Source: a virus
DNA length: 64,000 nt
Virus record (IMG/VR): IMGVR_UViG_3300045988_121566
Coordinates: 8,100-72,099 of that record
Strand: one strand, 5' to 3'
The translations under genes were made by a program, and so were the position numbers. The notes under the pieces are model-generated. The model searched no databases and had not been told where the DNA came from. It saw nothing but the letters and a program-made list of their open reading frames with translations. Below are positions 734-40,752 of this stretch, piece after piece (the stretch's first letter is position 1; every line of letters begins with the position of its first letter).

Positions 734-1147
734 ATGGCTACAAAATATAGAGAATCGCTTGATGCGTATGATTACAAACCGAAAGAAATGGTTGCATATC
801 TGAGACACAACGGCTGGCACTTCAACAAGAAAATGTGCGAGTGGGCAGTGGCTCAGATGAAAAAGAACGGGAAACGCATTAAGGCAATGAGCAGCGAGAG
901 TGTAGAAGAACTGCTGAGAAAACACGATGTTGAGTTAGAGAACAACATCGGCCATGATGCCTGTTATATTGCCAATATGTGTGTTGCAGACTTCTACGGC
1001 AGCTCGATAATGGACGAGAAATCGCTTGCCAAGTTTGTGAAAGACTATGTTGATGACGAGGATCAGCAGGATGGCTTTATCTTCAACCGCTTCTATGCAG
1101 ACTGTGCTCATAATGGGGTAGGTATTCCTTGGGATGAGATATTATGA
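734..1147 (+). CDS. hypothetical protein (137 aa)
   Basis: ORF track with an ATG start. Its stop overlaps the next start (ATGA at 1144-1147), suggesting translational coupling. Confidence 0.55.
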   Translation: MATKYRESLDAYDYKPKEMVAYLRHNGWHFNKKMCEWAVAQMKKNGKRIKAMSSESVEELLRKHDVELENNIGHDACYIANMCVADFYGSSIMDEKSLAKFVKDYVDDEDQQDGFIFNRFYADCAHNGVGIPWDEIL

Positions 1148-1524
1148 CAGAACAGGAGATTTACTTAGAGCAGTATGACTGGACGGTGCGTGTGTGTTAT
1201 CATGCTGGCAGGAATGATGCAATGAGAATAAGAAAGCATCTTCGGGAGTTGGGCTGTCATGGCGTACCTCTCGAAGATGCTTGTAATCTTATGCTCAAAG
1301 GTGAGCTGAATAAAGGGCTAACCTACTCCAATATGGACAAAAGGAAAAGTGTTGTCGTTATAGGGGAAGCCTCATCGTACCCTGAGTGGATCAATAGTAT
1401 CGGACATGAAATGCTTCATGTGGTTCAGCATATATCAGACTGTTTCCTCCTTGATATGTATGGAGAAGAAGTGTGCTATCTGCATGGAAAGCTGATGCAA
1501 GCGAGTATGGATGGATTAAAATGA
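1144..1524 (+). CDS. small HExxH-motif protein, putative zinc metallopeptidase-like (126 aa)
   Basis: Motif SIGHEMLHVVQH (HExxH followed by H). ATGA overlap with the upstream ORF. Confidence 0.5.
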   Translation: MTEQEIYLEQYDWTVRVCYHAGRNDAMRIRKHLRELGCHGVPLEDACNLMLKGELNKGLTYSNMDKRKSVVVIGEASSYPEWINSIGHEMLHVVQHISDCFLLDMYGEEVCYLHGKLMQASMDGLK

Positions 1525-2106
1525 AAATACTAATTTTTCAGGATAACCCTTCGTTACATCATAAGCCTCGACCCCTTCTATTGAGGTAAGATCCATCACT
1601 TCTGCCTTATGATGGTGTGTAACATTGTTGGTCTGCTTGGCATAGACTTCCAACTCTTTCAACATATACAGGACGTTGTCAATATCCATGGTTTCACACT
1701 CTGTATCAAACCAGATGTCAACGGTCTTTTCTCCATCCTCTTTGAGTATGTTGGTAGAGTATGATAGACTTCTACGTAAGTTTACATCGAGCCAGCGTTG
1801 CTTGTCGTTGAGAAGGAAAGAGTTGACTGCCGATGATTTGTCATAAGCAGTTATCTCTGCTATCTTTTCTGCCTTAGCTTCTTCGAGTTTCAAGGCATCC
1901 ATCTTAGCAGAGAATTGCGTAAATGCAGCTCTTACTTTGGCTTCATCGAAAGAATCTTTCGGCAGAGTACATTCGTAGCACTCATAAGCGTTCATCTCCT
2001 TGTTATACTCGGCATTGATGTGATATACCACCATGTTTCCGTACTCATACGTTTGTCTGTACTGACCTTCTGGAATAAAGGTCTTGATAAAATTAATTTT
2101 CTCCAT
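1516..2106 (-). CDS. hypothetical protein (196 aa) immediately downstream of the DGR reverse transcriptase
   Basis: ORF track with an ATG start 8 nt after the RT stop, on the same strand. Converges on and overlaps the 1144-1524 ORF by 9 nt. No diagnostic motif. Confidence 0.55.
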   Translation of the reverse strand: MEKINFIKTFIPEGQYRQTYEYGNMVVYHINAEYNKEMNAYECYECTLPKDSFDEAKVRAAFTQFSAKMDALKLEEAKAEKIAEITAYDKSSAVNSFLLNDKQRWLDVNLRRSLSYSTNILKEDGEKTVDIWFDTECETMDIDNVLYMLKELEVYAKQTNNVTHHHKAEVMDLTSIEGVEAYDVTKGYPEKLVFSF

Positions 2107-2113
2107 AGTCTTT

Positions 2114-3280
2114 TTACTTTTTAAATTTATTTTTTATTTTGATTTTCTTCATATTTACACAGAAGACTCTGTCTTTATGTGGCATCATCGCCCATGCCTT
2201 TCGCCTAACGTTATATGTATTATAATGAAAAAGTACGCCCATCAGGCTGTTGATGCGGTTTACGTACCTCTTCATAACTTCACCTTTAGGGTCAGACATC
2301 GTTCCGAATTTATCTATCACGTCATATAAATGTTCAACTGTACGTGAGTTTGGGAGTGTTCTGCCTGGGCGAATTAATGCGCCTGTAAACCTCACTCCAC
2401 TCGATGCCCTCTGTAGGCTAACCTTTCGTGGATGCAGTGTAAGCCCATGTTCTTCTAACAGATAGTTTCTCGATTCTTGTAGGATATTCATAAGCAATTT
2501 TTTATCCCTACTGATAACTACGAAATCATCTACATATCTTCCATATCCACCATCTTCTCCCACTCTGTCTATCATCAGTTTATCGAATTGAGATAGAAGA
2601 AGGTTTGCAAGAAGTTGTGATGGTAGGTTTCCGATAGGCAAGCCGACACCTTTTCCACAGGTGAATAACGACTTATTCTTCGGCAGCTTATTCCACAAAC
2701 TCAAATCACCCACCTTTATACAGTTCTTTGTCGGGTCGTGCAAGACAACTTTCTTCCATAGCCACAGCCACCATTCTATATCACTTCCATGATACTTTTC
2801 TATGATAACCTTTTCAAGTAGCCTATAAAGGAGCGCACGATTAATGCTCATAAAGAAGCCTTGTAGGTCACATTTCAACACCCACGATTCCGTGGTGTAG
2901 TTATCGCTCACTCGCTTTATTTGCTTCTTGACATCAGCGATACCGTAATCAGTGCCCTTGCCTGCACGACAGGCATACGCCTTGTCTGTCATTTCACTTT
3001 CGAGTATGTCTGCAAATTTAATCGCAAGCAGATGGTGTACTATCCTGTCTCGGAATGCAGCACAGAACACTTCCCTTAGCTTTGGTCTCGTTACGCAGAA
3101 AGTCTTACTCTTACTTATCTCGTATGACATAGAGTTAAGTTCGATATATAGTTGATAATTATTCGCAATGTAGTTCATCTTGTATTCGATGCAGCCTGGT
3201 GTTGAACCCTTATGCTTACAGCAGTCGTAATAGGCATCATATACCTCGTCTATCGTTACATATTCTCTTTCAAATTTCAT
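2114..3280 (-). CDS. DGR-type reverse transcriptase
   Basis: RT catalytic box GRYVDDFVVIS. DGR-typical motif LPIGNLPSQLLANLLLSQF. Lies 45 nt downstream of the template repeat. The track start at 3295 is a TTG; the ATG at 3280 (MKFEREYVT...) is preferred. Confidence 0.9.
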   Translation of the reverse strand: MKFEREYVTIDEVYDAYYDCCKHKGSTPGCIEYKMNYIANNYQLYIELNSMSYEISKSKTFCVTRPKLREVFCAAFRDRIVHHLLAIKFADILESEMTDKAYACRAGKGTDYGIADVKKQIKRVSDNYTTESWVLKCDLQGFFMSINRALLYRLLEKVIIEKYHGSDIEWWLWLWKKVVLHDPTKNCIKVGDLSLWNKLPKNKSLFTCGKGVGLPIGNLPSQLLANLLLSQFDKLMIDRVGEDGGYGRYVDDFVVISRDKKLLMNILQESRNYLLEEHGLTLHPRKVSLQRASSGVRFTGALIRPGRTLPNSRTVEHLYDVIDKFGTMSDPKGEVMKRYVNRINSLMGVLFHYNTYNVRRKAWAMMPHKDRVFCVNMKKIKIKNKFKK

Positions 3281-3325
3281 TTTTTTTAATGGCAAATACA
3301 GAGATAATCGTCACTACCTGATAAT

Positions 3326-3417
3326 CGAAAACTGGCAAAACCACGTTGCTGTTCGACTTGTTGTTGTTGTTCGCACTACTACTGTAGTTCCAAGCGTTCG
3401 TAGCATTGTTCTGCGTA
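3326..3417 (-). repeat. DGR template repeat (TR), 92 nt
   Basis: 79/92 identity to 3938-4029 at a constant offset of 612. In the target frame the TR reads TQNNATNAWNYSSSANNNNKSNSNVVLPVF, which is AAC/AAT-rich. The 67-aa track ORF 3314-3517 is just this repeat read in another frame. Confidence 0.9.
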
Positions 3418-3489
3418 TCTCGGTACATTCTCCGTTTTTACGGTCTGAACACTTCTCCATTAAGAGTTGCGTGTTAATACCCCTTGTCA

Positions 3490-3888
3490 CTATAGTGACG
3501 GCACCCTCGTGTTGCATACAGCTTCACGACTCTCACCTTTGCGCTTTTGCTCTGCCTTCTGCCAACCATACGCCTCTCTCAGTACCTTCTCCGCTAAATG
3601 ATTGAGGTTGGTTGCCTGTTTCTTATTCAGAAACTCAGCATCCGTGAGGAGGTTGATCCTTGAGTTGACTTCCGACATGAGCAATATATATTCATGTATA
3701 CGATCATCTCTTTCCGTCCAGCTCTCGTTGATTCTGCGTATCATATCGAGTGCTGTGCAAGCCTTGCTGACAGCCTCATTATAGGTGCTGTATCTAACAA
3801 TCTTGCTGACGGTCTTGCTATACTTTAGAAGTATCTTGCACAAGACAAGCGTATCTTTGTATATAAACAAATTCTCTGTAAGTGCCAT
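3490..3888 (-). CDS. avd: DGR accessory variability determinant (Avd)-like helical-bundle protein
   Basis: 132 aa and predicted all-helical. Sits between the target gene and the TR, the canonical Avd position. The C-terminal ...REAYGWQKAEQKRK resembles Avd/S23-IVS family ends. The track start at 3936 would overlap the VR; the ATG at 3888 (MALTENLF...) is preferred. Confidence 0.7.
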   Translation of the reverse strand: MALTENLFIYKDTLVLCKILLKYSKTVSKIVRYSTYNEAVSKACTALDMIRRINESWTERDDRIHEYILLMSEVNSRINLLTDAEFLNKKQATNLNHLAEKVLREAYGWQKAEQKRKGESREAVCNTRVPSL

Positions 3889-3929
3889 TTTCTTGAAAAG
3901 AGATTTAAAGAGATGAAGAGATAAAGAGG

Positions 3930-5885
3930 TTAACAAGCGAAAACTGGCAAAACCACGAAGCTGCTCGACTTGCCGTAGTTGATCGCACTACTACTGGAGC
4001 TCCAAGCGCTCGTAGCACTGCCCTGCGTAGAAGTCCACCTGTTTTTTTTCATTACGAAGTTGTAGTAGTCTGTAGCAACCGTCTCGCCAAACAGTGTTTC
4101 CAGCACCTGCCGAATGATACCGATATTGGCTACATGCACGTATTCCTGTCCAACCGACATGAGGAAACCATGTAAATCCTCACCACCGATTGTGAATATC
4201 TGACCATACGCATAATCAAAGGCTGGCACAGACAAGCTACGTTCCTGAGCCTCCTGTCTGATAAGGTATGATGAAGACTCTCCGTTGTAGTAATTTGCAT
4301 CATTCACGTTATTTCCGTTCAGAGCAATAGAATTAAACTGTAATTGCTGCGTACACCACGACGTACTTATCAGTTTTGACACATTCTTAATATCACTTGT
4401 ACGAATACAGAAAGTACCATGATTGATAGGAAGTGAAGCGCCTGCCACCTTGATAGCTACTGCGTCATCAGCGTTTCTTCCTGCGGTCACCCAGTCTTCG
4501 ATGTAGTACTCATTTTTATCAATATCTACCACAAATATACCCGACTTGAACTGGTAGAATCTGTAGTCGATAAGTCTCTGAGGAACGTTTGCCGTATAGG
4601 TTCTCGAGTTTTTATTGAAGCTGACATTGTAGCCTTCTTGATTATCAATTCTTACTGTATATTCCTTCTTGTATGGCACGAATACCGTCACCTGACCTTT
4701 CGCATCAGTCTGATATGTAGTATCCTTCCTGTCAACTGTCACAATAACAGGAATGCCTTCCCAAGCTGTGCCTACGTTCTCAACATACTTGGTAGCAGTG
4801 ATAATCACCTTCTCCATACTGTCCTCATCGTAAGGCAGATATTCCACATTGATATTTCGGCTACCCAATACTGCTGTATAGCCAACAGGAGCGATAGGCT
4901 GAGCATTGCCATATTCAGGGAACACTACCTGATAGTAGTTGCCTCGGTCGATGGTAAATGTAGCCTTACCCTCTGCGTTGGTTGTATACGTCTGAGGTGT
5001 CTTTCCGTTGTTGAGGAACACATTGATTTTAATGCCTGCCACGTTTATAGAATCAACAGAAGATGCGATGGTTACAGTCACTTCCTCATCTGTATTGATG
5101 ACATCTACCGACTTGGTTTCTCCGTTTCGGTTTGTTACAGATATTATTGAGCCTGACAGCTCCACATTGCAAGTTTCTGCTCCTGTCGTTGCAGTCTCTG
5201 CTGCTCGGATAGCGGTGTTTGTGTTATTGGCAGCGGTATTAGCTGCGTTGATGGATGCAGTAAGGGCATTGAGGTCTATATTGTCAAGTTTTCCCTTGTC
5301 TTCTCCAGACATAAAGCCAGGTTGACCTGGTAAATGATGGACTGAGCCGTGGGAAGGACCAGAAGCTAATGGAATACTAATTATTTTATGTTTGCCATCT
5401 GCAAACTCAAATAGCAGATTATTTAGTTTCACGTTAGGATTGAAGCTACCATCTACATCCGTATCAGTAAAACGAATGTCAGAAATAGTCTCACTCTTTT
5501 TAGAGTAATCCTTTAAATCTACACTCGTGGTAAATTCTCCTAATTGTTCCCAATCAGTATCTTTGACATTTGTAATATCGCTACCAGTAAATATATACTC
5601 TTTATATATATTCTTATTAGTCTTTTCATCAACACCTCTTGGAACCAAAAATATATGCTTACTTTGTTTTTCTGTCAGTTGTGTAGGAAGTTCAAGAGCT
5701 ATTTCGTGTATATCAGTATCAACATTTCCTAACTGAGAAAGAGGAACATTACCTCCTGCATCAAGAGAGGCAATACCATTTGCTACGCCCTTAGTATCAA
5801 GGACACTTTTCTTTGACTTGTCTATCTGTGTCTTGATGCCTTGCAGGAGTCTTAAAACACTATTTCTATCTAAATATTTTTCCAT
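3930..5885 (-). CDS. tail-fibre / receptor-binding protein; DGR target with a C-terminal variable (C-type-lectin-like) tip
   Basis: 651 aa. The N-terminus has the common tail-fibre motif GVANGIASLDAGGNVPLSQLGN. The C-terminus ...RWTSTQGSATSAWSSSSSAINYGKSSSFVVLPVFAC carries the VR. Confidence 0.85.
   Translation of the reverse strand: MEKYLDRNSVLRLLQGIKTQIDKSKKSVLDTKGVANGIASLDAGGNVPLSQLGNVDTDIHEIALELPTQLTEKQSKHIFLVPRGVDEKTNKNIYKEYIFTGSDITNVKDTDWEQLGEFTTSVDLKDYSKKSETISDIRFTDTDVDGSFNPNVKLNNLLFEFADGKHKIISIPLASGPSHGSVHHLPGQPGFMSGEDKGKLDNIDLNALTASINAANTAANNTNTAIRAAETATTGAETCNVELSGSIISVTNRNGETKSVDVINTDEEVTVTIASSVDSINVAGIKINVFLNNGKTPQTYTTNAEGKATFTIDRGNYYQVVFPEYGNAQPIAPVGYTAVLGSRNINVEYLPYDEDSMEKVIITATKYVENVGTAWEGIPVIVTVDRKDTTYQTDAKGQVTVFVPYKKEYTVRIDNQEGYNVSFNKNSRTYTANVPQRLIDYRFYQFKSGIFVVDIDKNEYYIEDWVTAGRNADDAVAIKVAGASLPINHGTFCIRTSDIKNVSKLISTSWCTQQLQFNSIALNGNNVNDANYYNGESSSYLIRQEAQERSLSVPAFDYAYGQIFTIGGEDLHGFLMSVGQEYVHVANIGIIRQVLETLFGETVATDYYNFVMKKNRWTSTQGSATSAWSSSSSAINYGKSSSFVVLPVFAC
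3938..4029 (-). repeat. DGR variable repeat (VR) at the 3' end of the tail-fibre gene
   Basis: There are 13 mismatches to the TR, at TR positions 3346, 3347, 3352, 3361, 3362, 3365, 3370, 3385, 3388, 3397, 3406, 3409 and 3410. All are T on the + strand, i.e. A on the coding strand. The last 20 nt (3938-3957 vs 3326-3345) are identical, which is IMH-like. Confidence 0.9.
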
Positions 5886-5897
5886 TTGCTAATATTT

Positions 5898-6656
5898 TTA
5901 TCTAAATACACTTGATATACAACTGTCAATATCAGAATCTGTCATTGCTGTAATAACTTCGCTATTGTTGTTTAACAGACCTAACACAGAGCGGTTATGA
6001 GTTTTAAAACCAACTGCTGTAACATCTAATGGAACTTCAAATCTTCCACCATCAAAGCCACCAATAGAACGAGGGTATGGATCGTCATCTCCTCCACTTG
6101 TTTCCCATTTTTCTAACTTAACATCATAGCCATCTTTATTAAAGGCTATAACAGCAGGAAGAGCACTGATGTTTCTGATTTCTTTAACGCCTATGATATT
6201 GTGGTCGTTTAACCCAAGATCGCTGTGCATAAAATTGCTGCCATCTATTCTGAGATATTCATCTTTTAGTTTGTCCCAAACGGCTTGAGCAATCTTCTCG
6301 ATGGTAATGGCATTGTTTTCAATCTCCTGAGTGCCAACAGCTCCTTCTTGGATATTGACTCTTTCTACAGCTCCATTTCCAATGATGCTTGAAGTAACTG
6401 CGTGTTCTGCCAGTTTTCTTTCCGTGACTGCTTCATCATGGAGTTTTTCGGTTGTTACGGAATCGTTCGCTATCTCGTCAGTGCCAACAGCGCCGTCCTG
6501 GATATTATCTCTCAGAACCGCACCTGTTCCAAGTTTTTCGGAAGTAACAGCTTCGTCAGCTAACTTTTCGGTTGTTACAGACCTGTCCTCGTAATCTTCA
6601 GTTTTCATTTGAGGAACTTTCGTTCCTAACCTAATATCTTCTCTAAATGTAGGCAT
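5898..6656 (-). CDS. tail-fibre-associated protein with tandem ~10-aa repeats
   Basis: About 10 copies of the repeat xxAVTxEKLxD/xGAVxxxxI (SVTTEKLADEAVTSEKLGTGAV...DGAVGTDEIANDSVTTEKLHDEAVTERKLAEHAVT...). A ~150-nt internal duplication is visible at DNA level (6330-6358 vs 6480-6508). Adjacent to the tail-fibre gene. Confidence 0.65.
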   Translation of the reverse strand: MPTFREDIRLGTKVPQMKTEDYEDRSVTTEKLADEAVTSEKLGTGAVLRDNIQDGAVGTDEIANDSVTTEKLHDEAVTERKLAEHAVTSSIIGNGAVERVNIQEGAVGTQEIENNAITIEKIAQAVWDKLKDEYLRIDGSNFMHSDLGLNDHNIIGVKEIRNISALPAVIAFNKDGYDVKLEKWETSGGDDDPYPRSIGGFDGGRFEVPLDVTAVGFKTHNRSVLGLLNNNSEVITAMTDSDIDSCISSVFR

Positions 6657-7639: not shown

Positions 7640-8119
7640 TTATGGCTCGAAGTCGGGGAAGATAATGTTGTACTTTGACGCCTGTTTCATGGCATTAGCC
7701 AAAGTGCGGTAATCTTTATCAAAGCGCTTGTTTACATACTCGATAACGTCTGCAGTAGAAACAACACCCATCACCCGTTCCTTCTCAGGCTCAGCCTCAT
7801 CGGTGTATTTTTCGGAAGTCTCCTCTTTTTCAGTAACGGCATCGTGCGCCTGCAAAGCTTCTTGCTTCTCCTTATCAAGAGCAGCCTGCTCGCCAGGGTA
7901 TTCCTCCTCGGAGTGCTCGAGAATGATGGTGTTGTTAAGAAAAAGAGGGTTGGACTCCAGGAGATCCTGGCAGTATCTGTTGCGAAGTGTCAGTGACGGA
8001 TACTTGTTGATAACCACATTGCCGTTAGTGAAGTTGTATCGTACCTTGTTGCCATGCTTTCCTTCAAGCAGATAACTTACATTATTATTGCTGACTCTCG
8101 CCTTGTATGTTTTAATCAT
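7640..8119 (-). CDS. hypothetical virion-module protein (159 aa, acidic centre)
   Basis: ORF track with an ATG start. Directly follows the terminator after the putative capsid gene. Confidence 0.55.
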   Translation of the reverse strand: MIKTYKARVSNNNVSYLLEGKHGNKVRYNFTNGNVVINKYPSLTLRNRYCQDLLESNPLFLNNTIILEHSEEEYPGEQAALDKEKQEALQAHDAVTEKEETSEKYTDEAEPEKERVMGVVSTADVIEYVNKRFDKDYRTLANAMKQASKYNIIFPDFEP

Positions 8120-10872: not shown

Positions 10873-12885
10873 ATGACAAAAGCAAGGATATTGACTCTTA
10901 GCATGGTAATGCCTGGAAAGAAACCGTACAGTTCGGTAATCAACCGTGCATCGAGGCAAGCACATGGTAACGACATGGAGCTATTGCAGCGATGCAGGAG
11001 CGCATGGAACAGCCTGAGTGGGGTAAGAGAGACGAGGGCGAGAACCATGAGATACTGCATGGGAGACCAATGGGGAGATACCATCAAGGTGTGGGATCAC
11101 GGCTCCTACGTCTACATGACTGAACGGGAGTATATGGAGCGAAAGAACACTACGCCGATGAGCAATAACGTGATGGCGAGCATACTGGAGTCTATAGGCG
11201 GCCTCTATGCCAAGCAAGGTACAGAACCCGTGTGCTTTGCCAGGGACAATGACTCAAGAGCTATCAACGACATGATGAGCGCGACCCTGCAATGCAACTG
11301 GCAGTCAACGTATATGCAAGACCTGTTGAATCACGCCATCAAAGACTATGTGATAGGCGGACAAATGTACGCAAGAGAAGGGTGGGAGTCGAAGCAGCTC
11401 GAACTTCCTGACGCGTGGACGGAGCTTATGGAGCCTGACTTTATGTTTTTCGAGTGCGGAAGCGACCCGAGACATGAGGACATCAGCCTGATAGGTTGTC
11501 TGCATGACGTGAGCAGAGAAGATTTGTACCAGAAATTTGCGCGACCGGAGTTTGGACTGACGATAGATGACCTTGACAGCATCTTTTCCATACAAGACGT
11601 GAGTGATGACGGAGTGGGGTATGAGTTCAACGAGGAAAAGAACCTTGGCAACATAAGCTTTGACCATACCAATAAGTCGAACCACTACGTGAGAGTGATA
11701 GAGGTATGGACTACCGAGACAAAGATGCGCCTGCAATGTTTTGACCCTATAGCCACGAACGCCAACAACTCGTACTTTAAGGTGGATATGGACGATACGG
11801 CCATGATAGAGAAGCTGAGATCTGACAATATTAAGCGCAAGAAGATGTATGACGATATGGGTGTGCCAGAAGACGAGAGAGCCTACATCGTATCGGAAGA
11901 AGTAGCTGACAAATACTGGTACTACACCTATATGGCACCAGACGGAACTGTGCTGTGCAAGGGGGAAACCCCATACGACTATAAGAGCCATCCGTTTACA
12001 ATCAAGCTATTCCCGTATCTCAACGGCAAGATACACCCATTCTTAGCGAACGTGATAGACCAGCAGAGATACATCAACCGCCTGATAGTAATGAACGACA
12101 TGGCGATAAGAAGCAGCTCGAAGGGTGTGTGGATGATACCAACCACAGTTCTTGGCGGCAAGAGTCCGGCAGAGTTTGCCGAAGAAATAGTGGAGTATGA
12201 CGGACTGTGTTTCTATACACCAAGGCCCAATATGCCACAAGTGAAGCCTGACATCATCACCTCGAATGCGGTGAACATTGGCGCCAACGAGCTGCTGCAG
12301 ATAGAGCTGAACCTGATACATGAAGTGTCGAACGTGAGCGGAGCTCTGCAAGGGAAAACGCCATCGGCAGGAACATCTGCATCGAGATATGCTCAGGAAA
12401 CACAGAACGCCACCACCTCGCTGTACTCAATTCTATCGGATATGGACGTGTTCGCAGAGAAGATCGCCACCAAGAAGTGCATGACCATACAGCAGTACTA
12501 CGAGAACGGCAGAAAGATACTGAACAAAGACAACAACAGCACCATATTCTACGACCGATATACGGCAAGAGACGTACACTTCAAGACAAGTATAAAGAAT
12601 GCAGCCGCCTCTACCACATATCAGTCTCAGATAAACGACAAACTTGACCAGTTGCTGCAAATGGGTGCTATCAACGTGGTGCAGTATCTGCAGAACATCA
12701 ATGCTCCATTTGCAGACAAGCTGCTTGCGAGTGTTCAGGAACAGCAGGCACAGCTTGAACAGATGTATCAGCAGCAACAGCAATTAGCAATAGCACAAGG
12801 CGGTGGACAGATAGAGAACGGAGTTGTGCAGGGTGCCAACCAGGAAACGGTGAACCAAGCACAAGAGTATTTACAATCAGCATAA
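10873..12885 (+). CDS. portal protein
   Basis: 670 aa. The N-terminal RTMRYCMGDQWGD is a Y-x-x-G-D-Q-W portal-type motif. Gln-rich C-terminal tail. Leads the + strand packaging/morphogenesis operon. Confidence 0.7.
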   Translation: MTKARILTLSMVMPGKKPYSSVINRASRQAHGNDMELLQRCRSAWNSLSGVRETRARTMRYCMGDQWGDTIKVWDHGSYVYMTEREYMERKNTTPMSNNVMASILESIGGLYAKQGTEPVCFARDNDSRAINDMMSATLQCNWQSTYMQDLLNHAIKDYVIGGQMYAREGWESKQLELPDAWTELMEPDFMFFECGSDPRHEDISLIGCLHDVSREDLYQKFARPEFGLTIDDLDSIFSIQDVSDDGVGYEFNEEKNLGNISFDHTNKSNHYVRVIEVWTTETKMRLQCFDPIATNANNSYFKVDMDDTAMIEKLRSDNIKRKKMYDDMGVPEDERAYIVSEEVADKYWYYTYMAPDGTVLCKGETPYDYKSHPFTIKLFPYLNGKIHPFLANVIDQQRYINRLIVMNDMAIRSSSKGVWMIPTTVLGGKSPAEFAEEIVEYDGLCFYTPRPNMPQVKPDIITSNAVNIGANELLQIELNLIHEVSNVSGALQGKTPSAGTSASRYAQETQNATTSLYSILSDMDVFAEKIATKKCMTIQQYYENGRKILNKDNNSTIFYDRYTARDVHFKTSIKNAAASTTYQSQINDKLDQLLQMGAINVVQYLQNINAPFADKLLASVQEQQAQLEQMYQQQQQLAIAQGGGQIENGVVQGANQETVNQAQEYLQSA

Positions 12886-38354: not shown

Positions 38355-38591
38355 TGCTGGCATCATGCGCTACCATGAATATCAAGGGGCATTCCCACCA
38401 TACCATATATACATAAAATCGCTAAACAAAAAGTCAAAGATCAATCGAGCAATCACCACAACAACTGGCGCTTTCTCAAGTTTGCGATTTAAAATGAAGG
38501 CGGTGGTATGATGCTCGCCCGCAACATCTAATTCTGGTTAATGGACTATACCGCCTACCGCCTTACCATGAAAACGCAAATAATAACTTGC

Positions 38592-38729
38592 CAACGCAGG
38601 AGGATTCGAACCTCCGTCTCTCACCTGCTTTTTAAAGGGCTTATCGCAGGAACTTCACTACTTATCATTCACATGGCTTATAACAACATTATAAAAAGCC
38701 CTCGCTCTAACCAACTGAGCTATGCGTTG
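38592..38729 (-). ncRNA. tRNA-like RNA 2 (138 nt; canonical acceptor, D and T arms with a ~65-nt expansion)
   Basis: Minus strand: CAACGCA-TA-GCTC-AGTTGGTTA-GAGC ... GGAGG-TTCGAAT-CCTCC-TGCGTTG-G. The acceptor is a perfect 7 bp and the D and T arms are textbook. The 87 nt between them contain an 8-bp closing stem GCTTTTTA/TAAAAAGC and an ATAAGCC direct repeat. No standard anticodon arm could be drawn. Confidence 0.55.
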
Positions 38730-39612: not shown

Positions 39613-40752
39613 TTAAAGTTTCCCCTCAAGTTTATCGAATGCTCCTCTAATATCTTTGTTAAGAGTCCTTGCGTATCTTGTTGTCTGACGCAGAGTCGTA
39701 TGGCCAAGTACTTTCATTACTACATTGATTGGCATACCTTTTGAGAGGAACAGGGTTGCTGCCGTTCCTCTGCCCATGTGGCTCCTGAGATTACTCACTC
39801 CAGCCATCATGCCTATAACCTTGAGATAATCATTATACTTCTGATTACTCAGATGTGGTAATTTGAAATCGTATTTTCTCAAAATCTCCATAGCCGGAGC
39901 GAGCAGTTGAAAAGAAAAGTCCGTGTCGGTCTTCGTGCGGTGTGACTTATAGACCATCTTTTTCTCCTCCTCCTCGCAGGCGCTGAAGTCGAACGCCATC
40001 AAATCTGAGTATGCAAGTCCTGTGTAGACTTGAAATAAAAATAAATCTCTTGCCCTGCAAAGGTGCGGAGTATTAAGTTGCAGCTCTTTAATTTTAATGA
40101 ACTGATCTTCTGTTATACAGTCAACGTATTGTTTTTCCCCTCTGTTTATCTTAAACGGCAACTTCGTATACGGATTTACATCTATAAGTCCGTCTACACA
40201 GGCATCATTAATGAATAGCTTTAGATATTTGTGGTAGTCGTAGATGGTTGATGCTTTCTTGCCTTGCTGGTGCAAGAACTCATCCATAGACCTGATGTTT
40301 GACACGTTACAGTCGGAGAATAGAGCTATCTTCCCCCAGGAGCGGAGGAACTTTGTAAACACGACATACCTCTTCTTCGTATGCTCGCATACATTACGCT
40401 CATTAGTCCGCTTTTCGCAATATGCTATAAAGTCGGTCTTGTCGCAGACTTCATTCTGCATAAGGGTAGGTATAAGGTCGAGGTCTGTAATGCCTTCCTC
40501 TATCATGCGGTCTGTGATTTTCTTCACACGAAGATAGAACGCATGAATAGTTTCGTTCATAAGGTCTGCGTCCTTGCACTTCGACAGCACCATCTTTTTA
40601 GTGTCTGACCAGTTGTTAGGAGTCACAAGAACACCTGTTGACATGTACTTTCTCTCGCTTCCGAAAGACACACGAATTTCCACAGAAACAGCCTTTTTTG
40701 CCGTTCCTCGCTTCAAGCGGTTGTGAATAATGTTTAAATGTAATTTCTTCAT
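39613..40752 (-). CDS. int: tyrosine-type site-specific integrase
   Basis: 379 aa. The N-terminus has the Bacteroides-integrase style (MKKLHLNIIHNRLKRGTAKKAVSVEIRVSF). The C-terminal catalytic region is RSHMGRGTAAT...VLGHTTLRQTTRYA (H-x-x-R, H, Y). Confidence 0.85.
   Translation of the reverse strand: MKKLHLNIIHNRLKRGTAKKAVSVEIRVSFGSERKYMSTGVLVTPNNWSDTKKMVLSKCKDADLMNETIHAFYLRVKKITDRMIEEGITDLDLIPTLMQNEVCDKTDFIAYCEKRTNERNVCEHTKKRYVVFTKFLRSWGKIALFSDCNVSNIRSMDEFLHQQGKKASTIYDYHKYLKLFINDACVDGLIDVNPYTKLPFKINRGEKQYVDCITEDQFIKIKELQLNTPHLCRARDLFLFQVYTGLAYSDLMAFDFSACEEEEKKMVYKSHRTKTDTDFSFQLLAPAMEILRKYDFKLPHLSNQKYNDYLKVIGMMAGVSNLRSHMGRGTAATLFLSKGMPINVVMKVLGHTTLRQTTRYARTLNKDIRGAFDKLEGKL

Follow-up and report, generated by a model that had tools for sequence, protein, structure and literature searches.

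The window analysed here is a stretch of 64,000 nucleotides (nt) of viral DNA (positions 8,100 to 72,099 of IMG/VR record IMGVR_UViG_3300045988_121566), near the start of which an initial annotation had placed a diversity-generating retroelement (DGR). We find that this locus is very probably a complete DGR, made up of a target gene, an Avd-type accessory gene, a template repeat (TR) and a reverse transcriptase (RT) gene, that it was recently active and that it belongs to a temperate gut phage of the Bacteroidales type. This reading holds because the repeats differ only at adenines, the RT is DGR-like, an open reading frame (ORF) of the Avd family is present, the gene order is canonical and the variable repeat (VR) lies in a C-terminal domain of the target. 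Feature coordinates, all in window numbering, are collected in Table 1.

A repeat search of the window recovered a 95-nt direct repeat (3323-3417 and 3935-4029) with a spacing of 612. Within it, the 92-nt cores of the TR and the VR align without gaps at that offset and differ at 13 positions. Tabulated by TR base, as the initial annotation had proposed, all 13 of these mismatches fall on a T of the plus strand of the TR, that is, on an adenine in the coding (minus) sense, and no other base of the TR is affected (P = 9.2e-8 by the hypergeometric distribution). In the coding sense, the changes from TR to VR are A>G at eight positions, A>T at four and A>C at one. Thus, the gapless alignment and its restriction to adenines were described correctly; the number of unaltered TR adenines, given as 17, is in fact 18 of a total of 31. 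Read in the frame of the target, the TR encodes TQNNATNAWNYSSSANNNNKSNSNVVLPVF and the VR encodes TQGSATSAWSSSSSAINYGKSSSFVVLPVF. Retabulation reproduced these translations and the ten AAC, AAT or TAC codons said to be altered, nine of which are AAY and one TAC.

The pair is the only one of its kind in the window, which therefore has no second target. The 3'-terminal 20-mer of the repeats, which had been put forward as a probe for further VR copies, occurs exactly twice (0.00 expected), once in the TR and once in the VR. When we scanned both strands of the window with the TR adenines free to vary and a match demanded at the other 61 positions, again only the TR and the VR were found, and a search of viral contigs with each A of the TR replaced by N returned nothing beyond contigs already known. 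A 52-amino acid (aa) ORF (3270-3428, minus strand) crosses the TR in the frame of the VR, and gene callers annotate it (in L030, at 3853-4011); we regard it as a likely by-product of the TR rather than a genuine gene.

To ask how general the adenine pattern is, we drew on relatives obtained by scanning IMG/VR with the RT, which gave 23 loci with RT identities of 64-90%. Twenty-one of the 23 show the layout VR-Avd-TR-RT, one contig ends before the cassette and in one a repeat pair was not detected; in all relatives the Avd-type gene sits between the VR and the TR. Together with the window, the 21 relatives supply 22 TR/VR pairs, which were counted over a 90-nt core. TR adenines account for 225 of the 237 substitutions (A>T 113, A>G 85, A>C 27). 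The TRs are 96-100% conserved in relatives whose VRs are 79-91% identical, and where two TRs share at least 95% identity, columns with A in both account for 331 of the 384 differences between the VRs. Between loci L008 and L021, neither the TR nor the 300-nt flanks show any difference, but the VRs do so at 10 positions, and 10/10 of these are at TR adenines. Codon context also matters: substitutions hit positions 1 and 2 of the ten AAY codons in 30-86% of loci, and the adenines of ACG, CAG, AGT, AAG and CCA codons in about 0-10%.

A near-clonal relative bears on recent activity. L032, a 3,091-nt contig from an independent run (ERR12410825), encodes an identical Avd protein and a 388-aa RT with one nucleotide difference. 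Its alignment to the window covers 3,077 nt and shows 11 mismatches, of which 10 are in the VR, all at TR adenines, and one is at window position 2355; outside the VR this amounts to one difference in about 2,985 nt, and the TRs are identical. Because L032 differs from the window almost only at these VR sites, retrohoming on the timescale of strain divergence seems the best account, and we infer that the DGR was active recently in this phage lineage, in keeping with the earlier suggestion that the element is or recently was active. The VR of L032 also carries an extra, in-frame 3 nt in its (AAC)4 tract, at window position 3978/3979. VRs that are 3 nt (one codon) longer than their own TR occur in L001, L009 and L013 as well, always in the (AAC)4 tract. 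DGRs are known to acquire indels opposite AAC repeats, which have been ascribed to slippage (PMC5758913, PMC12875486). As the insertion in near-clonal L032 comes together with A-site substitutions, it points to codon gain by slippage in cDNA synthesis. The 90%-identity cluster of the target protein has a single member, and hence yielded no VR alleles; a metagenome scan anchored on the exact VR flanks gave 0 matches.

The genes themselves fit this picture. On the minus strand they run in the order target, Avd-type gene, TR and RT, and the gene coordinates agree with the canonical order first described. The RT is 388 aa long from the ATG chosen by gene callers and would be 393 aa from an alternative TTG at 3295. 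It contains IGNLPSQLLAN (2603-2635) and the catalytic YVDD (2525-2536), the two motifs on which its earlier identification had relied, and matches Pfam RVT_1 (E = 2.5e-17) and phrog_1423 (E = 7e-77). Its top match in the PDB is 8ub7, a 328-aa reverse transcriptase (E = 4.6e-31, 111.5 bits) that we take, from its length and the aligned motifs, to be Brt of Bordetella phage BPP-1; in this alignment IGNLPSQLLAN is paired with IGSLTSQLFAN and YVDD with YMDD. Other solved RTs (group II, retron, Cas-RT and DRT2) score at most 35 bits, with E of 1e-7 or weaker for the group II and retron enzymes, which puts 8ub7 ahead by about 77 bits. By tblastn, the closest RTs of cultured phages are those of Bacteroides phages F2, F4 and Bacuni_F1 (39-41% identity) and BS-TP1 (37%), over about 90% of the length, and identity to BPP-1 Brt is 29%. 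The I/LGxxxSQ motif, the YxDD site and the closeness to the Bordetella phage DGR enzyme support assignment of this RT to the DGR type.

The 132-aa ORF between target and TR, originally called Avd-like, matches phrog_3206, 'Avd protein of DGR', over almost its full length (E = 1.4e-5). The same PHROG is matched by 19/19 diverse members of the ORF's own family (best E = 5.5e-10). This match, together with the position of the gene, supports an Avd-type identity for the ORF at the level of the family.

The target is a 651-aa ORF that contains the VR in frame. It has no whole-protein family match in Pfam, NCBIfam or PHROG. A motif at residues 26-62 is common to tail and tail-fibre PHROGs, albeit weakly (best E = 5e-5), members of the target family show weak mid-protein matches to Big_1, CarboxypepD_reg and SdrD_B (Ig-like or beta-sandwich), and the adjoining gene (5898-6656, minus strand) matches tail-fibre phrog_892 (E = 3.6e-26). 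Among cultured-phage records, only residues 27-183 of the target find matches, at 29-47% identity, to two uncultured phages. Because of the neighbour's tail-fibre match, the N-terminal motif and the fold matches described below, one of them named a tail fibre, the target probably is a tail fibre or receptor-binding protein. The initial annotation had stated this outright; its ORF stands, and its 'tail fibre' is drawn from context and weak homology.

At the C-terminus of the target, the VR lies in a 207-aa domain whose family falls into 205 clusters when grouped at 50% identity; the domain invariably occupies the extreme C-terminus, on scaffolds of 200-1,384 aa. No Pfam model matches this domain; DUF1566, Fib_succ_major and FGE-sulfatase were negative even at E of 5. 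Structure prediction from a shallower alignment gave an unusable model (predicted local distance difference test score, pLDDT, 54.5), and we used instead an AlphaFold2 model built on a 40-sequence alignment reaching down to 23% identity (pLDDT 97.1; predicted template modelling score, pTM, 0.92). Searched with Foldseek against BFVD, this model matches predicted phage proteins over about 212 columns (E = 2.5e-11 to 2e-8; template modelling score, TM, 0.69-0.74), including a 'DUF1566 domain-containing protein' of crAss-like phage cr10_1 and a 'tail fiber protein'; for the proteins annotated as DUF1566, TM is 0.72-0.74. Its top PDB match is the C-terminal (DUF1566) domain of Legionella Lcl (8q4e; probability 0.89, E = 0.06, 67 columns), followed by weak matches to snake-venom C-type-lectin-like proteins. 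The C-terminal domain of Lcl has a C-type-lectin-like fold (PMC11162425), and DUF1566 / Fib_succ_major targets are a recognised class, accounting for 14% of DGRs (PMC5758913). The final four beta-strands of the model are those encoded by the VR. Prediction of this C-terminus, which the initial annotation had advised with a C-type-lectin fold in mind, thus bears the idea out at the level of a confident model, and supports the view that the varied residues are carried on a DUF1566 / C-type-lectin-like fold. 'Tentaclin' targets (PMC10743442) were considered and rejected, as the C-lec domain of tentaclins is N-terminal and the VR domain here is C-terminal.

We next consider the 3' ends of the repeats, where a DGR should mark the limit of mutagenesis with a site for the initiation of mutagenic homing (IMH) in the VR and its counterpart, IMH*, in the TR. 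The final 20 nt of the two cores had been noted as identical and IMH-like. The identity is real and the boundary is fixed, but the segment is AT-rich, not GC-rich, and is without a hairpin of the BPP-1 type. Homology extends for 5 nt 3' of the cores in the coding sense (TR ATTAT, 3321-3325; VR CTTGT, 3933-3937), which brings two further differences, both at TR adenines and fixed in all relatives examined. The target's stop codon (3930-3932) directly follows CTTGT, 5 nt past the VR core. Across the 22 loci, CGCTTGT(-TAA) in the VR and CGATTAT in the TR are invariant, and there is no A-site variation 3' of the 20-nt block. Since no VR shows variation at the two TR adenines past the block, information transfer would have its 3' limit at or before the CG/ATTAT junction. 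Judged by this comparison of sequences, the 3' ends of the VR and the TR behave as IMH and IMH*. A hairpin or cruciform 3' of the VR was not above chance in the VR 3' end plus 80 nt (DNA fold z of 0.41; 130/200 shuffles fold as well). A GC-rich inverted repeat downstream of the IMH is a feature of BPP-1 and Legionella and is present in only 34% of DGRs (PMC5758913), and an AT-rich, hairpin-less IMH-like end is within the known variation of DGRs.

The repeats are flanked by RNA that appears to be structured. The Avd stop codon and the TR are separated by 72 nt, and the TR and the RT start codon by 45 nt. We aligned the leader of 21 loci, folded the alignment with RNAalifold and then counted pairs explicitly. 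Four helices emerged, in which 95.6% of cells are paired, compared to 32-52% in slid controls, and 12 pairs show compensatory changes. The covariation score was reached by 0/500 shuffles, and in the helix 3476-3481/3422-3427 compensatory changes occur in 6/6 pairs. By the evidence of covariation, the predicted RNA helices flanking the TR are conserved. In Rfam, no family matches the leader, the TR or the spacer.

An arm at the 5' end of the leader, CGTCACT (3494-3500, in the avd 3' end), has two possible partners, one local (3486-3490) and one in the spacer between TR and RT (3309-3315). The long-range helix of arm and spacer is 93% paired and would enclose the TR; both partners are near-invariant, so the pair counts do not discriminate between them. 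A template:primer duplex of TR and spacer, formed through the duplicated near-palindrome GATTATC, was tried and rejected, as it shows no covariation and a slid control is equally good. Within RT codons 12-16 we also observed a hairpin, GGTA-TATGA-TGCC (3233-3245, minus strand), with compensatory changes in 2/4 of its pairs (seven sequences for one pair, eight for the other); it may belong to a functional spacer RNA that reaches into the RT ORF. A tentative model, which we hold to be rather doubtful, is that the DGR RNA of this phage family is organised unlike that of BPP-1, with the bulk of its structured and presumably protein-binding RNA in the 5' leader of about 75 nt, where BPP-1 has it in a long 3' spacer, and with a leader arm whose two exclusive partners could switch cDNA synthesis. 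Were it true, this family could serve as a natural test of how universal the individual RNA elements of DGR reverse transcription are.

Collectively, these data are consistent with the following mechanism. An RNA spanning the avd 3' end, the structured leader, the TR and the short spacer would be transcribed and, as covariation indicates, fold into the conserved helices. The RT, with the Avd-type protein, would then copy the TR into cDNA, starting at or just 5' of the TTTTCG/ATTATC junction, a start point that we place there because the boundary of information transfer is fixed at this site. During copying, the RT would misincorporate opposite template adenines, as the sequence pattern shows. 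By analogy to BPP-1, the cDNA would take the place of its homologue, the VR, in the 3' end of the target gene, guided by the IMH-like end. The predicted outcome is variation focused in the ten AAY codons of the DUF1566 / C-type-lectin-like domain at the probable fibre tip, with a capacity of up to about 15^10 = 6e11 protein variants and an occasional gain of a codon by slippage at (AAC)4. The likely function is varied receptor binding, and hence host range.

Table 1. Positions of the DGR features in the 64,000-nt window.
Feature	Positions	Strand	Description
DGR target gene	3930-5885	-	651 aa; N-terminal tail-protein motif, central beta-sandwich (Ig-like), C-terminal VR domain
VR domain	3933-4553	-	207 aa, C-terminal; predicted fold DUF1566/Lcl_C-like (C-type-lectin-like)
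VR	3938-4029	-	92-nt core; target residues 620-649
IMH-like VR 3' end	3933-3957	-	20 nt identical to TR (CGTGGTTTTGCCAGTTTTCG, coding sense), then CTTGT
Avd-type gene	3490-3888	-	132 aa
Structured RNA leader	3422-3507	-	avd 3' end and avd-TR gap; about 75 nt, four covarying helices
Leader helices	3476-3481/3422-3427, 3471-3475/3448-3452, 3463-3466/3455-3458, 3442-3443/3432-3433	-	predicted with RNAalifold
TR	3326-3417	-	92-nt core; 31 adenines, ten AAY codons including the (AAC)4 tract
IMH*-like TR 3' end	3321-3345	-	the 20 nt of the VR, then ATTAT in place of CTTGT
TR-RT spacer	3281-3325	-	45 nt; AGTGACG at 3309-3315, second GATTATC copy at 3303-3309
DGR RT	2114-3280	-	388 aa from ATG

Several results weigh against this reading or parts of it. 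Twelve of the 237 substitutions in the family fall at non-A positions, mostly in L009 and L010, whose TRs look abnormal. Efficient homing in BPP-1 depends on a GC-rich inverted repeat downstream of the IMH, which the AT-rich IMH-like end here does not have. The assignment of the Avd-type gene rests on one PHROG family, and neither hhalign nor a PDB profile search detected a link from the 132-aa family to BPP-1 Avd or to a PDB entry. For the target, the role as a tail fibre is deduced from context; its VR domain matched no solved C-type-lectin DGR target significantly, the best E in the PDB being 0.06 and none reaching 1e-3; and its family profile was negative against BPP-1 Mtd (hhalign probability 0.3%), on which ground membership in the Mtd family was rejected. 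Finally, the case for activity comes from comparing assemblies.

This last point leaves room for an element that is intact in sequence yet inactive in this phage, with TR/VR differences that are historical. Current activity is not demonstrable from one assembled sequence, and loss does occur in the group: in L034 and L036, which are syntenic with the window, Avd, TR and RT are gone but a diversified VR-like end persists, and the A-depleted, VR-like TRs of L009 and L010 may belong to decaying elements. Yet all ORFs of the window's cassette are intact, the catalytic YVDD is present, the TR retains its 31 adenines and all ten AAY codons, and near-clonal L032 combines a single difference outside the VR with 10 A-site changes and a codon insertion inside it. 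We consider inactivity improbable.

More radical alternatives do away with the DGR altogether, and we give both of them next to no weight. One is that the RT stems from another retroelement, such as a retron, a group II intron or a defence RT (DRT/Abi), and lies beside an unrelated repeat. The top NCBIfam models for the RT are indeed TIGR04416, a group II RT/maturase (91.8 bits, in the fingers only), and retron St85 (50.2 bits), and its homologues are annotated 'retron-type' in many phage records. These scores are, however, far under the curated cut-offs of 300 and 235, the DGR enzyme 8ub7 leads the PDB matches with the IGxxxSQ motif aligned, Rfam finds neither a group II intron nor a retron RNA in the window at the gathering threshold, and the adenine-specific mismatches recur in 22 loci. 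Both the retron and the group II intron were rejected on these scores and on the missing RNAs. The other alternative is an ordinary duplication, gene conversion or assembly artefact, in which two 92-mers diverged by normal mutation. Near-identical repeats can be mixed by metagenome assemblers, and P0024 and the TR of L010 do look like TR/VR chimeras. Against this, confinement of mutation to one base of one copy has a P of about 9e-8, the TR copy is conserved and the VR copy variable between relatives, and the window is identical to an independent ENA contig (CHAT13-1_SAMEA2149794 scaffold_165) over the 7.9 kb compared. A DGR therefore remains by far the best explanation of the locus.

How does this DGR compare to known systems? 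With the BPP-1 DGR (mtd-avd-TR-brt) it shares the order target-Avd-TR-RT, the adenine-specific differences between TR and VR, a VR at the extreme 3' end of a (here probable) tail-protein gene and a homologous RT. Complementarity between a stretch at the 3' end of avd and the spacer after the TR recalls the avd:Sp 'cPRT Stop' duplex of cis-primed reverse transcription (bioRxiv 10.1101/2023.10.23.563531), but this stretch is near-invariant and has a competing local partner. The differences are substantial. The VR measures 134 nt in BPP-1 and 92 nt here; the gap between avd and TR is 0 nt there, whereas here its 72 nt hold covarying helices; and the gap between TR and RT is 144 nt there and 45 nt here. 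The IMH-like end is AT-rich here, with no inverted repeat after it, the target and Avd proteins have no detectable sequence similarity to Mtd and bAvd, and the VR domain is DUF1566-like, not of the Mtd type.

Also related are the DGRs of gut Bacteroides phages, which are reported to diversify tail proteins: those of Hankyphage (PMC6199706), of Bacuni_F1, F2 and F4 (PMC8143477) and of BS-TP1. F2, F4, Bacuni_F1 and BS-TP1 carry the nearest cultured-phage RTs (37-41% identity); neither they nor Hankyphage show nucleotide-level similarity to the cassette. The portal protein of the window has its nearest cultured relatives in the temperate Bacteroides phages BKO1-TP3, BS-TP4 and BF1-TP2, at only 30-35% identity, which indicates a different phage lineage. 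With Legionella LdtA and the other DUF1566 / Fib_succ_major targets ('CLec2', category d; PMC5758913), the target shares a C-terminal VR and a DUF1566-like, C-type-lectin-like domain on variable N-terminal scaffolds that include Ig-like ones. It differs from that class in that its domain is larger (207 aa), undetected by Pfam and linked through predicted structures only, and in that it would be part of a phage virion, unlike the bacterial surface lipoprotein of Legionella.

Much of this was known: tail-protein DGRs of gut Bacteroidales phages are established (PMC6199706, PMC8143477), and a DUF1566-type variable domain, slippage at AAC and a missing inverted repeat are documented variations (PMC5758913). 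The current picture of DGR biology is unchanged by our results. What is new, modestly, is the covarying leader with its short spacer, the uncurated 207-aa domain family and the relatives without a diversifier. The analysis adds a well-documented DGR that appears to be active, from a Bacteroidales phage lineage that is uncultured and probably temperate, plus its relatives, and defines about 205 clusters of C-terminal variable domains of 207 aa, tied by a confident model to the DUF1566 / C-type-lectin-like fold. The covarying helices that flank the TR can be used to test how general the RNA control elements of BPP-1 are, and relatives of the L034/L036 type offer a natural comparison of 'evolvable' with 'frozen' receptor-binding tips.

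These relatives deserve a description of their own. L034 (10783-13413) and L036 (10783-13418) are syntenic with window positions 1516-5885, and in both a fibre of 671 or 674 aa, respectively, adjoins a 196-aa gene, with Avd, TR and RT all absent. The fibres have the same C-terminal domain as the target, to which that of L034, the one compared, is 74% identical, and their last residues look like those of a diversified VR (...VLPVFPC in L034). A TR was not detected within the 20 kb examined. Either the diversifier was lost and the VR is 'frozen', or a DGR elsewhere acts in trans.

Other members of the group have unusual repeats. The TRs of L010 (5868-5960) and L009 (5880-5970) are depleted of adenines and VR-like, reading, for example, TAC GTC ATC GAC in place of AAC AAC AAC AAC, and show several TR/VR mismatches at non-A positions. 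Protein P0024 is a target whose VR equals the translation of a TR and which reads on into the 3' flank of the TR. Such oddities could reflect VR-to-TR conversion, decaying elements or chimeras of TR and VR made in assembly.

Elsewhere, the window encodes the portal protein (10873-12885), an SU10-like adaptor, an SbcC-like nuclease, a radical SAM protein and an integrase, and the phage is probably temperate, of the Bacteroidales type and from an uncultured lineage. Searched by megablast against 50,697 phage records, the cassette had no match. No relative of the RT was found among 185,579 species-representative genomes, and hence that scan named no host; the sole hint is one Avd homologue labelled 'uncultured Prevotella sp.'.

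Near the integrase gene (39613-40752, minus strand) lies a 139-nt tRNA-like gene (38591-38729, minus strand), which scores 49.3 bits with the Rfam tRNA model and is missed by ARAGORN at default settings. In intron mode, ARAGORN assigns it the anticodon UUA, which would read the stop codon UAA, and predicts that its variable arm is long and that 48 nt are inserted in its anticodon loop. The gene may encode a suppressor tRNA or an interrupted tRNA, or may be tied to the attachment site of the integrase. In L034 (1-7093), L035 (1-6862) and L036 (1-6969), a few kb upstream of the region syntenic with the window start, we observed a giant 'large polyvalent protein' of 5,300-5,800 aa with ddrB-ParB, AAA_34, Helicase_C_4 and LPD38 domains; the window has no giant ORF of this type. 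Lastly, a 137-aa DUF7841 protein encoded in the window (734-1147, plus strand) is found with identical sequence in 1,061 public-assembly blocks, which suggests that this phage group is very widespread.

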